Source: Escherichia phage EJP2. From it: a stretch of 64,000 bases of DNA. The DNA lies in the sequence record OQ411014.1; one strand, written 5' to 3'. The notes under the pieces were generated by a model that saw only the letters and a program-made list of their open reading frames with translations, did no database searches and was not told the origin of the DNA. Positions 39,892 through 42,851 of the stretch are shown piece by piece. The position numbers and the translations under genes were made by a program. Position 1 is the stretch's first letter, and every line of letters starts with the position of its first letter.

Positions 39892-41001
39892 ATGAAAAAG
39901 TATTTGGTTGGTGGTTTTGTACGCGATAAGCTACTTGGCTTACGTCCTAAAGACAAAGATTATGTCTTGGTAGGAGCGACCCCGCGTGATATTCAGTACT
40001 TAAAAAGTATTGGATATGAGCAGGTTGGTGCAGACTTCCCTGTGTTCTTGGATAAGGACGGCAATGAGCACGCACTTGCCCGTACTGAACGCAAGGTGTC
40101 TGATGGCTATAATGGCTTTGAAGTGAATACACAAGGTGTAACGCTTCAGGAAGACTTGTATCGTCGTGATTTGACCATCAATGCGATTGCCTTTGACCCA
40201 CAGTTAAAGGTACACGTAGACCCATATGGTGGCAAAGAAGACCTAAAGAACAAAGTACTGCGACATGTATCTGAACATTTTGAAGAAGATCCAGTACGTA
40301 TTCTGCGTATCGCTCGTTTCAGTGCACGTTATTCGGACTTTACAGTACATGAAAGTACTGAATCGTTGATTCGCCGTATGATCAATCGTGGCGATATTTC
40401 TGAATTGACTAAAGAGCGAGTGTACGTAGAATTCGAGAAAGCATTCTCCGAAGAAGAGCCAGTTATCTTCCTGGAGAAGCTATCCAAATGGGGAGCCATG
40501 AGTAAGTTGATTCCTGGTAATCCTGAAAGTACTTACAAGACTATTGAATACATTAGTTCCAATTGTACTTTAGCGTATAAGGATTTTTACTTGTGGGCTG
40601 AACTAATTGGTTCTAATGAAGTACAAAAAGATGGAGTCTTTGGTCAGGTCAAGCTACCATCGCGTTACTCTAAGTTCAGTGCGTATGTATGCAAGCACGC
40701 GGATAGTATCAAGAATTTCCGTAAGAGCACCCCAGAAGAAATGGTAAATATTCTTACTGAGATGAGCGTAAAGAACAACGGTGGTGAAGAGTACTTGTAC
40801 AAAGTACTGGAATACTTTATCCTACGTAAAGAGATTGATTTGGACTTAGAAGATTTGATTATTCGAGTTTATGATCGCTTTGAGAATACGGTCATTGGTA
40901 ATATTGATCAGATGCTTAAAGATGGAACTATCACTTCACGTGAAATTCCTTCTTTTGTGAAAGAGAAGCGAATCGCTGAGGTGGAAAAAATCTTCAAATA
41001 A
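39892..41001 (+). CDS. CCA-adding tRNA nucleotidyltransferase / poly(A) polymerase family
   Basis: GGFVRDKLLG, DKDYV and RRDLTINA head-domain motifs; 369 aa. Confidence 0.8.
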   Translation: MKKYLVGGFVRDKLLGLRPKDKDYVLVGATPRDIQYLKSIGYEQVGADFPVFLDKDGNEHALARTERKVSDGYNGFEVNTQGVTLQEDLYRRDLTINAIAFDPQLKVHVDPYGGKEDLKNKVLRHVSEHFEEDPVRILRIARFSARYSDFTVHESTESLIRRMINRGDISELTKERVYVEFEKAFSEEEPVIFLEKLSKWGAMSKLIPGNPESTYKTIEYISSNCTLAYKDFYLWAELIGSNEVQKDGVFGQVKLPSRYSKFSAYVCKHADSIKNFRKSTPEEMVNILTEMSVKNNGGEEYLYKVLEYFILRKEIDLDLEDLIIRVYDRFENTVIGNIDQMLKDGTITSREIPSFVKEKRIAEVEKIFK

Positions 41002-41002
41002 A

Positions 41003-41032
41003 TTGAGATATTTTCGAAAAAAGTGATATATT
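41003..41032 (+). promoter_or_regulatory. sigma70-like promoter TTGAGA-N18-TATATT with TGA
   Basis: same architecture as the family, weaker -10. Confidence 0.4.
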
Positions 41033-41064: not shown

Positions 41065-41742
41065 ATGCGATATACATGCGGGATAATATTTTATCGAAAC
41101 GGTCAGATACTTGTAGGTCACACGACTGGTCAGAGTCATTGGGATTTACCGAAAGGTAAGACTGAAGGTTCTGAGACATTCAAGGAAGCGGCAGTTCGTG
41201 AATGCTATGAAGAAACTGGATACAGTATTGATGAACGAGATTTACTGTACTTAGGTGATGTATCATACAGAAAGGGAAAGCGTTTAGTACTGTTCTTTTA
41301 CACAGCCAAGACGAAACCAATTGCTGAAGAGTTGCAATGTATCAGTACTTACACGAATAAGTACGGTATTGTACGTCCAGAGTTGGACAAATTCAAGTAC
41401 ATAGACATTGAGGACTGTGAACTCTACTTGACTGAACGGATGTGTGATAGTATAATCAAAGCTATTACACAATTTGATAAAAAGACAAATAAAAAGGAAG
41501 ATAATATGAAAGTTGTAATTTATGGTCGTAAAGCTGGTTGTAAGTGGTGTACTACTGCTAAAGAAGTTTGTGAAACTAACTCAATTGATTTTGATTTCAT
41601 TGATTTAGATGAAGCTGGTATTGATGGTGCTAAACTCGCTGAAATTTGTGGCACTCCAGTACGTACTGTTCCACAAATTTTCGTTGACGATCAACACATT
41701 GGTGGTTGTACTGAGTTTATTTCGCACCTATCCAAAATGTAA
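41065..41742 (+). CDS. Nudix hydrolase fused in frame to a glutaredoxin/NrdH-like domain
   Basis: perfect Nudix box GKTEGSETFKEAAVRECYEETG; C-terminal MKVVIYGRKAGCKWC (CxxC) preceded by internal RBS aggaag at 41494 and ATG 41506, no stop between the domains. Confidence 0.6.
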   Translation: MRYTCGIIFYRNGQILVGHTTGQSHWDLPKGKTEGSETFKEAAVRECYEETGYSIDERDLLYLGDVSYRKGKRLVLFFYTAKTKPIAEELQCISTYTNKYGIVRPELDKFKYIDIEDCELYLTERMCDSIIKAITQFDKKTNKKEDNMKVVIYGRKAGCKWCTTAKEVCETNSIDFDFIDLDEAGIDGAKLAEICGTPVRTVPQIFVDDQHIGGCTEFISHLSKM

Positions 41743-41750
41743 GGTTTCAA

Positions 41751-42002
41751 ATGTCAAGTCTTCAAGAATTCCATAACAAAAGTTCTGCACAAGCCCAGCG
41801 ACTTGCTAAACATTTTGGTGTAGAACTCAAGATGCCGGATTTAGCAGAAATAGAAGCGAAAGCAAAGCATCGCATCATGTTGATGGAGAAGTATCATGAG
41901 CAGAAAGATATGTACGATGCAGCGATTCATAAACTGCTTGACATTGTACCTGCTGATGTATTACAATCTATCATATCGAAACTGCTAAATTCTTCGAAAT
42001 AA
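41751..42002 (+). CDS. hypothetical protein
   Basis: 83-aa ORF. Confidence 0.4.
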   Translation: MSSLQEFHNKSSAQAQRLAKHFGVELKMPDLAEIEAKAKHRIMLMEKYHEQKDMYDAAIHKLLDIVPADVLQSIISKLLNSSK

Positions 42003-42350: not shown

Positions 42351-42851
42351 ATGAATAACATCACACATCACGTAGGAAATCTTTTCAACTTATATAAAGA
42401 AGTAGGTGAAGAGAATAACAGTACTGATAGTGAAGTAATGAACGTTATTATTCATGGTTGTAACGCACAAGGTCGTATGGGTTCTGGTTTTGCTAAAGAA
42501 TTACGTGCACGTTTTCCTGGTGCTTATAACGAATATAAAAAACAGTACGAAAGTACTGGACTTCAGTTAGGAAAGAACGTATACTACTTACCACATGATG
42601 AAAACACCCTTATCGTAAATGCTATCACTCAAGAGTATTACGGATATGATGGTAAGAAGTACGTTAGTTATGACGCAATTGATGATTGTATGATTGAACT
42701 AAATACTCTACTTTCTGGAATGGATGGAAATATCCAAATTCACTTCCCAAAAATCGGAGCCGATTTAGGTGGTGGTAATTGGGAAGTAATCAAAAGTATC
42801 ATTGAAACACGGGTAATCTTTGGTACTAAGCATCTATATACCCTAGTATAA
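42351..42851 (+). CDS. macro-domain protein (ADP-ribose binding/processing)
   Basis: VIIHGCNAQGRMGSGFA and IHFPKIGADLGGG resemble the two macro-domain glycine-rich motifs; 166 aa. Confidence 0.6.
   Translation: MNNITHHVGNLFNLYKEVGEENNSTDSEVMNVIIHGCNAQGRMGSGFAKELRARFPGAYNEYKKQYESTGLQLGKNVYYLPHDENTLIVNAITQEYYGYDGKKYVSYDAIDDCMIELNTLLSGMDGNIQIHFPKIGADLGGGNWEVIKSIIETRVIFGTKHLYTLV

Follow-up and report, generated by a model that had tools for sequence, protein, structure and literature searches.

Whether two enzyme domains that share one open reading frame (ORF) are made as one protein only, or whether the second is also released in free form from a start of its own, is the question raised by positions 41065-41742 of a 64,000-nucleotide (nt) stretch of the Escherichia phage EJP2 genome (OQ411014.1), the whole of which is called the window here. 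At this locus a Nudix hydrolase domain is joined to a glutaredoxin (Grx) domain, whose first codon is an ATG preceded by a Shine-Dalgarno (SD) sequence. We favor, with moderate confidence, an inherited and clade-specific stop-loss fusion with a nested glutaredoxin gene (grx) start, which would yield two products whose functions are assigned by homology. The argument depends on the following elements, with lengths in amino acids (aa).

41065..41742, + strand: fused Nudix-glutaredoxin ORF, 225 aa plus stop, 25.7 kDa, the same as WEM33253.1
41065..41469, + strand: Nudix hydrolase domain of the T4 NudE.1 type, aa 1-135, assigned from Pfam, phrog_1185, and similarity to T4 NudE
41155..41223, + strand: Nudix box GKTEGSETFKEAAVRECYEETGY, fitting GX5EX7REUXEEXGU
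41476..41505, + strand: lysine-rich linker DKKTNKKEDN, aa 138-147, the putative former 3' tail of the Nudix gene plus the spacer before grx
41494..41500, + strand: internal SD sequence AAGGAAG, 5 nt before the ATG at 41506, the putative ancestral grx ribosome-binding site
41506..41742, + strand: nested in-frame glutaredoxin ORF of the GrxA family, 78 aa, 8.6 kDa, assigned from Pfam, NF008401, and 1EGO
41539..41550, + strand: active-site CxxC, here CKWC, aligning with CPYC of 1EGO

One open frame with two domains

The fused frame of EJP2 runs on the + strand from the ATG at 41065 to the TAA at 41740-41742, comprising 225 codons with zero internal stops. The mechanical ORF call begins upstream at GTG 41023; since all relatives open with MRYTCG..., the ATG at 41065 is taken as the conserved start. 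Two Pfam domains were detected, each above its gathering cut-off: NUDIX (PF00293) in the N-terminal part (aa 6-84, E 6.6e-13, 49.3 bits vs. a cut-off of 21.1) and Glutaredoxin (PF00462) in the C-terminal part (aa 150-212, E 1.6e-11, 44.6 bits vs. 22.9; E 1.8e-12 on the nested ORF alone). The first-pass annotation, made from the letters of the sequence, was therefore right in describing a Nudix and a glutaredoxin domain in one frame with no stop between them. The 225-aa protein is 100% identical to WEM33253.1 and is on record from six contigs (NCBI, Logan, and ENA).

In GenBank, the EJP2 protein is named 'glutaredoxin 1' and its orthologue in Erwinia phage Hallingskeid 'nudix hydrolase', and each name covers half of the fused protein. 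The EJP2 paper lists the gene EJP02_192 as glutaredoxin 1 and assigns it as a helper to the phage ribonucleotide reductase, a class I enzyme encoded elsewhere in the EJP2 genome, and neither the Nudix domain nor a proteome is mentioned there (PMC10213699).

The structure of the fused protein was predicted by AlphaFold2 with a 31-sequence alignment. The mean predicted local distance difference test score (pLDDT) was 90.6, with values of 89-98 at aa 1-130 and about 90 for both domains, and the predicted template modeling score (pTM) was 0.61. The C-terminal helix of the Nudix domain (aa 124-145) runs into the linker, where the pLDDT falls to 64 at residues 141-150, and the model contains no confident inter-domain packing or interface. 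The protein is thus predicted to consist of two well-folded domains on a short flexible lysine-rich linker.

The putative internal start of the glutaredoxin

The SD sequence AAGGAAG and the ATG at 41506 sit precisely at the boundary between the Nudix and glutaredoxin domains. The pairing energy of AAGGAAG with the anti-SD is -5.6 kcal/mol, close to the median of -5.65 kcal/mol for the first ATGs of ORFs of at least 150 aa in the window, while an SD reaching -5 kcal/mol precedes just 7% of the 367 internal in-frame ATGs of the window. The claim of a strong ribosome-binding site and an ATG belonging to the glutaredoxin itself is hence borne out, the site being of start grade. RNA folding at the internal start is unremarkable (z = 0.95).

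The same arrangement is found in seven fused lineages, comprising EJP2, Hallingskeid, and five diverged metagenomic lineages. The internal SD has a pairing energy of -5.6 to -8.4 kcal/mol in all seven, with a GGA/AGG core at the proper spacing, and the internal methionine is invariant (7/7). In contrast, the SD of the Nudix start is much weaker, at about -2.9 kcal/mol in six of the seven and -4.0 kcal/mol in the metagenomic lineage P0006. The conservation of the internal site does not extend to the peptide, as the linkers read DKKTNKKEDN, DKKRETKGNN, DKKRNHKEMK, EKKKPKKGKI, KKRNKRREKI, GKKKPRKGKV, and TRTKKRKDTI, and the residues encoded by the SD itself are KKED, TKGN, HKEM, KKGK, RREK, RKGK, and RKDT.

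The proposal that the locus encodes both a fusion and a free glutaredoxin consequently gains comparative support, since the SD and the methionine are kept in 7/7 lineages though the linker peptide varies; the two products themselves are inferred. The internal ribosome-binding site and ATG appear to be the inherited start of a once-separate gene rather than a new feature. The most economical reading is that a free 8.6-kDa glutaredoxin would still be made from 41506 beside a less abundantly initiated 25.7-kDa fusion.

Distribution and proposed origin of the fusion

A tblastn search retrieved 69 RaK2-like jumbo phage records in which both halves are adjacent, with at least 80% of the query covered. 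The closest phage is Hallingskeid (82.6% amino-acid identity), which has a single 227-aa coding sequence and represents a second cultured fused phage, sequenced by another laboratory (PMC11780129). The phage collection contained no near-identical record of the window, the best megablast match being GAP32 with 73% identity. Fused forms were also recovered from a search of 5.8 billion proteins, falling into six 90%-identity clusters of 225-227 aa, all of which carry both PF00293 and PF00462 and stem from Logan, ENA, or NCBI entries only. The contigs of these clusters share a neighborhood that comprises a CCA-adding enzyme, the fused ORF, and an 82-aa ORF and continues onward to gp13. The fused forms fall into one clade when neighbor-joining trees are built from either the flanking CCA-adding enzyme or the Nudix domain, which implies a single origin of the fusion. 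The tree of the 75-aa glutaredoxin is poorly resolved, and there the fused lineage P0004 groups with phage Munch.

The first-pass annotation had held that relatives consistently encoding two separate genes would speak against the fusion. Two separate genes are indeed what is found outside the clade, in 68 of the 69 RaK2-like phage records and in all 19 IMG/VR loci, but not in the seven lineages of the fused clade. Among the 68 unfused records, nine were read at the junction (Kaldavass, pEa_SNUABM_47, GAP32, 121Q, CBB, Munch, RaK2, XbC2, and fHe-Yen9-04) and the remainder were judged by annotation; the junctions of two unfused metagenomic near relatives, P0007 and P0008, and of the 19 IMG/VR loci were read as well. 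At the unfused junctions, the arrangement ranges from a Nudix stop 30 nt upstream of the grx ATG through to an overlap, the tightest cases being the ATGA overlap in RaK2 and P0008 and the gaps of 1-2 nt in 121Q, Munch, and P0007. The grx frame relative to that of Nudix is 0 (with intervening stops), +1, or +2. An SD of the AAGGRA type precedes the grx ATG by 5-8 nt in all of the unfused relatives read. The junction of 121Q, aaggaaataacATG, is letter-identical to that of Hallingskeid; the Nudix frame differs between them and meets a TAA in 121Q.

Two unfused arrangements are of separate note. At the IMG/VR locus L025 (IMGVR_UViG_3300012988_000001, 1501-2167), the Nudix ORF is 147 aa long and extends about 11 nt past the grx start, with an ATG-to-ATG distance of 433 nt; this locus shows that, within the group, the junction can be spaced, abutting, overlapping, or fused and shifts from one state to another. 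In the 121Q/PBECO4-type phages (L005, 121Q KM507819, 1501-1600; about 30 Asteriusvirus records), one extra nucleotide is inserted into the Nudix gene after codon 21 or thereabouts, as a result of which the conserved N-terminus MRYSCGIIFYRDGQILIGHTT is out of frame with the rest, and the gene is annotated as a 132-aa product from an internal ATG. Truncation of the enzyme, decay to a pseudogene, or a recoding site could each account for this 121Q-type Nudix gene.

Nudix-glutaredoxin fusions were not found elsewhere, neither in the top 150 of 2,671 HMMER matches among 1.84 billion representatives, which reach down to about 72 bits, nor in the 19 IMG/VR RaK2-like loci or the 68 other phage records. 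The multi-stretch or long HMMER matches that were checked proved to be multi-glutaredoxin reductases and Nudix-Tpt1 or Nudix-PTH2 proteins, with no Nudix-glutaredoxin protein among them. The literature search returned no paper linking Nudix and glutaredoxin as a phage fusion, and the EJP2 and Hallingskeid papers are silent on it. Candidate revertants within the fused clade were rejected, as the 144-147-aa members of the P0003 cluster are Munch-like unfused Nudix proteins instead. A 178-aa EJP2-like variant on an ENA contig of 2,168 nt (P0216) leaves the window sequence inside the linker, and its tail, ...FRKTPKVLYFQWWAILGSNQRLPPCEGDTLPLS, is unrelated; rather than a genuine variant, a short chimeric contig is the most likely explanation.

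For the origin of the fusion, the following course is proposed. The ancestor of the EJP2/Hallingskeid-like clade would have carried a NudE.1-type Nudix gene adjoining a grxA-type gene, a pair that is often translationally coupled. The Nudix stop was probably lost by a frame change in the A-rich 3' tail of the gene, so that translation reads on into grx. The resulting 225-aa protein would combine a catalytically intact Nudix domain, as judged from its sequence, a flexible lysine-rich linker of about 10 residues, and a dithiol glutaredoxin, with the SD and ATG of grx surviving inside the ORF. Because these signals survive, two proteins are most likely produced: the fusion of 25.7 kDa, initiated at the weak-SD start (41065), and a free glutaredoxin of 8.6 kDa, initiated at the strong-SD start (41506). 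Each domain probably acts on its own, and the fusion would mainly fix the co-expression and stoichiometry of the two.

Possible maintenance of the open frame and alternative explanations

Several points weigh against this interpretation. Composition-matched shuffles of the linkers match the observed SD strength in 2-20% of cases per sequence (20% in P0003), and SD-like strings arise fairly easily because the lysine, arginine, glycine, and glutamate codons of the linker are purine-rich. Ribosomes elongating from the upstream start could block the internal site. The probabilities of 0.014-0.13 obtained under the neutral model described below are merely suggestive, and the seven lineages share ancestry. 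The substrates of both domains are taken from homologues of at most 39% identity, and the active-site CKWC departs from the canonical CPYC.

The alternative that survives best is a neutral fusion, in which the stop was lost by accident with no selective value, the free glutaredoxin from the internal start does the job, and the fusion protein is a tolerated by-product with domains that work separately. In its favor, two genes suffice in all other genera, the linker is flexible with an unconserved peptide, and the structure prediction contains no interface. It was weighed by the pattern of divergence along the gene. Compared in pairs, the seven fused lineages share on average 82% of their nucleotides in the Nudix part and 73% in the glutaredoxin part, but 59% in the 36-nt linker, whose length is constant, the ATG-to-ATG distance being 441 nt in 7/7. 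Stops in the linker occur in frame 0 in none of the seven lineages, in the -1 frame in six, and in the +1 frame in two, and composition-matched shuffles of each linker leave frame 0 stop-free in 24-41% of cases. A crude star-tree neutral simulation gave a probability of 0.014 that all lineages are stop-free when seven independent lineages were assumed, and 0.13 when four lineages were assumed and the SD was held fixed, so that under conservative settings neutrality is not decisively rejected. The constant length is by itself weak evidence of selection, as the unfused relatives with a tightly coupled junction also hold their spacing (434 nt in four lineages). On the other hand, if the fusion were neutral, its reversion by a stop or an indel would be neutral too, yet none of the seven lineages has reverted even though the linker is near-saturated with changes. 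Taken together, the data are suggestive of selection on the open frame, though not decisive, and a neutral fusion is regarded as unlikely, if still a serious contender.

A second alternative, the kind of functional coupling that a Rosetta-stone argument would propose, holds that the glutaredoxin reduces or deglutathionylates the cysteines of the Nudix domain, or that it tethers this domain to the ribonucleotide reductase or the machinery of deoxynucleoside triphosphate (dNTP) synthesis. The gene pair is adjacent in all 69 RaK2-like records and often translationally coupled, known glutaredoxin fusions join the domain to a redox client (Grx-NrdB NF009398; the Prx-Grx hybrid 1NM3; thioredoxin-glutathione reductase, TGR), the fused frame bears signs of maintenance, and the Nudix family has near-invariant cysteines at C5, C47, C92, and C127. 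Nevertheless, Nudix chemistry needs no redox step, T4 NudE, with no glutaredoxin neighbor, shares the equivalents of C47 and C92, the family is mostly unfused, and no interface is predicted (pTM 0.61). The suggestion of the first-pass annotation that the locus links nucleotide sanitation or the hydrolysis of nicotinamide adenine dinucleotide (NAD) derivatives to redox supply accordingly found nothing beyond adjacency to sustain it, the AlphaFold2 model being one of independent domains with a low-scoring linker (pLDDT 64). Coupling of this kind is considered improbable.

It is about as doubtful, and if anything a little more so, that only the fusion protein is made, the internal SD and ATG being an unused relic or a by-product of linker composition, with no free glutaredoxin. 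The purine-rich linker codons, the shuffles of P0003, and the masking of internal sites by translating ribosomes, all mentioned above, would agree with it. It accords poorly with the retention of a start-strength SD in 7/7 lineages while the encoded peptide varies and the methionine does not, with the scarcity of comparable SDs at other internal ATGs, and with the much weaker upstream start.

Recoding, by a ribosomal -1 frameshift or transcriptional slippage on the AAA-AAR of the linker, would release a stand-alone Nudix protein at a nearby -1 stop in a regulated ratio. An in-frame AAA AAR is present in 7/7 fused lineages, P0005 has the perfect heptamer A AAA AAG, and a -1 stop follows soon after in 6/7. 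However, AAA AAG is likewise found in the lysine-rich tails of unfused relatives, A/T-rich sequence would be expected to contain out-of-frame stops, the RNA offers no stimulatory structure, and P0005 is the lineage without a -1 stop in the linker, which together make recoding very improbable.

Finally, a sequencing or assembly artefact, in which a base or stop was missed in the A-rich junction and two genes were falsely joined, would suit the A5 runs of the junction, where homopolymer errors are common, and the two-gene state of most relatives, but the missed stop that the first-pass annotation wished to see checked is excluded by the exact 225-aa protein on six contigs from three sources and by the open frame shared by seven lineages with a divergence of 12-21% in the Nudix DNA and of 41% in the linker, including Hallingskeid (PMC11780129), and this explanation has hardly any probability left.

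The Nudix half

The Nudix half matches phrog_1185 (E 1.5e-47) and shares 39% identity over 124 aa with T4 NudE (E 2e-21). Its Nudix box GKTEGSETFKEAAVRECYEETGY reads G31-x5-E37-x7-R45-E46-C-x-E49-E50-x-G52-Y, in which every invariant position is satisfied, and R45, E46, E49, and E50 are invariant across the alignment of 31 family members. The box had been called perfect; all invariant residues are in place, while the two U positions are occupied by C and Y and not by I, L, or V, so that near-perfect is the better term. None of the NCBIfam equivalogs reaches its cut-off with the Nudix half, the best being TIGR02705 with 33 bits vs. 154. In agreement with the alpha/beta/alpha Nudix fold, Foldseek matched it with probability 1.0 to the structures of RppH, Dcp2, and diadenosine tetraphosphate (Ap4A) hydrolase, and YmfB was also matched; no solved structure matched both halves, the Foldseek matches being limited to the Nudix half.

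The substrates of T4 NudE are given as flavin adenine dinucleotide (FAD), diadenosine triphosphate (Ap3A), and ADP-ribose (Xu et al., 2002, as cited in PMC9503650), and the enzyme decaps NAD-RNA in vitro (bioRxiv 10.1101/2024.04.04.588121). By homology, the substrates of the EJP2 Nudix half may be of the ADP-ribose, NAD-cap, or dinucleoside-polyphosphate type. Distant relatives of this domain (30-41% identity) carry a second enzyme domain in the proteins P0103, P0165, P0196, and P0069, the partner being the RNA 2'-phosphotransferase Tpt1/KptA in three of them and the peptidyl-tRNA hydrolase PTH2 in one. The KptA-Nudix fusion and a role in RNA repair connected with NAD and ADP-ribose have been discussed (PMC9503650). 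The Tpt1/KptA and PTH2 partners point to a role of the Nudix clade in tRNA/RNA repair and ADP-ribose clean-up.

The glutaredoxin half

The C-terminal domain had been described as glutaredoxin or NrdH-like, and the first of these terms applies. It is assigned to the GrxA type, with 85.1 bits for NF008401, barely over the cut-off of 84 (TIGR02183 stays below its cut-off with 71.9 vs. 106.5), and it matches Escherichia coli Grx1 (PDB 1EGO, E 3.3e-14), where M148 aligns to Met1, residue 1 of the chain. An NrdH identity was rejected, there being no NrdH family among the 11 NCBIfam matches and only glutaredoxins among the top PDB matches (Grx1, Grx3, Grx2, and GrxC5). The segments RTVPQIF and IGGCTEF of the EJP2 domain align with ETVPQIF and IGGYTDF of 1EGO, which contain the TVP and GG glutathione-binding motifs. 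The active site among the fused relatives is CKWC, CKFC, or CPYC. By homology, the domain would reduce disulfides in a glutathione-dependent manner, as do the glutaredoxins that serve class I ribonucleotide reductase.

Genomic context and candidate promoters

The following features flank or overlap the fused ORF.

39892..41001, + strand: gene of tRNA nucleotidyltransferase (CCA-adding enzyme), upstream, with Pfam PolyA_pol and PolyA_pol_RNAbd, syntenic in all relatives
41003..41032, + strand: sigma-70-like promoter candidate TTGAGA-18-TATATT, TG-extended, 10/12, in the 63-nt gap between the CCA gene and the fused ORF, a consensus match only
41428..41456, + strand: sigma-70-like promoter candidate TTGACT-17-TATAAT, 11/12, within the 3' end of the Nudix part, about 50 nt upstream of the internal ATG
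42351..42851, + strand: putative macro-domain gene (Tk.4-like, Appr-1-p processing), three genes downstream, Pfam Macro E 4e-05, 24 bits vs. 22

The position of the macro-domain gene is syntenic in relatives. The context, with the CCA-adding enzyme, the macro domain, and the Tpt1/KptA and PTH2 fusions of related Nudix domains, points to ADP-ribose and RNA-end chemistry, in which the glutaredoxin has no obvious place, its usual client being class I ribonucleotide reductase.

Promoter-like matches are not enriched in the region (11 vs. 14.1 expected from shuffles). The candidate at 41428-41456 is kept in most of the fused clade, in Munch, and in P0008 and is lost in P0006; in other genera its hexamers carry synonymous changes, and the synonymous sites are only partly conserved. 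It could, at a weak level of support, yield a glutaredoxin-only mRNA.

The gene that follows grx differs within the group. In the Mimasvirus/Eneladusvirus relatives, a YqeY/GatB-like gene lies right after grx (L001, 3743-4156; L003, 2192-2605; L004, 2186-2593), and this place is taken by an unrelated ORF with a length of 77-83 aa and no assigned function (phrog_34640/26469; 41751-42002 of the window) in the EJP2/Hallingskeid clade as well as in the Munch, 121Q, and P0007 types.

Significance

Both domains are ordinary members of known families, and their adjacency is conserved in RaK2-like phages; it is the covalent fusion that was previously undescribed. If the frame is selected, the locus would be a compact natural case of a coupled gene pair turned into a two-domain protein with the downstream start kept, in which one mRNA supplies the same redox protein both tethered and free, and it would suggest that a NudE-type hydrolase and glutaredoxin are linked in jumbo phages, physically or through regulation, in a way not described before. 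Were the two domains functionally coupled, the glutaredoxin would keep the cysteine-rich Nudix domain reduced or switch it by (de)glutathionylation, or, in the docking version, nucleotide or ADP-ribose clean-up would take place where dNTPs are made by redox-driven synthesis; how much glutaredoxin is tethered and how much is free would then depend on the nested start. A neutral fusion would amount to an ordinary stop-loss event without broader consequence. For annotation the locus is of practical value, and it offers a small model of two genes fusing while internal initiation is retained.

Comparison with known systems

For nested in-frame genes with an internal ribosome-binding site, gene 4A/4B of phage T7 and C/Nu3 of phage lambda are established cases in which both products have been demonstrated. 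They resemble the EJP2 locus in that a long ORF contains an in-frame ATG after a start-grade SD, so that one mRNA gives a full-length and a C-terminal protein; they differ in that the second product of EJP2 is deduced from the conservation of SD and ATG alone.

Among single-domain homologues, T4 NudE.1 (gene e.1) shares with the EJP2 protein the Nudix box as well as counterparts of C47 and C92, whereas it is a stand-alone protein of 151 aa adjoining the lysozyme gene e, with no glutaredoxin neighbor. E. coli Grx1 (GrxA; 1EGO/1GRX), the donor for class Ia ribonucleotide reductase, aligns with the glutaredoxin half over its full length, including the TVPQIF and GG motifs; the EJP2 domain differs in having CKWC in place of CPYC, in its length of 78 aa with a 4-residue deletion, and in being encoded as the C-terminal part of a larger ORF.

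Two groups of known fusions each resemble one side of the protein. The Nudix-Tpt1/KptA and Nudix-PTH2 proteins likewise start with an N-terminal Nudix domain of the same type that is followed by another enzyme domain, but their partners fit RNA-repair and NAD/ADP-ribose chemistry, which glutaredoxin does not. In Grx-NrdB (NF009398), the Prx-Grx protein HI0572 (1NM3), and thioredoxin-glutathione reductase (5W1J/5W1L), a glutaredoxin is covalently joined to an enzyme, and weak matches to their glutaredoxin domains were obtained; their partner is a redox client or reductase of glutaredoxin, whereas the Nudix hydrolase has no known redox step.

Also close is the separate nudix/grxA pair of the RaK2-like phages (GAP32_187/188, RaK2_00032/33, 121Q 540/541, and CBB_193/194), with 64-83% amino-acid identity in both domains by tblastn and 84% identity for the best metagenomic Nudix segment. 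The synteny of CCA-adding enzyme, nudix, grx, ..., and macro is shared, as are the SD and ATG before grx. In these phages a stop ends the Nudix gene, whereas in EJP2 and its six sister lineages the junction is stop-free and the two frames coincide.

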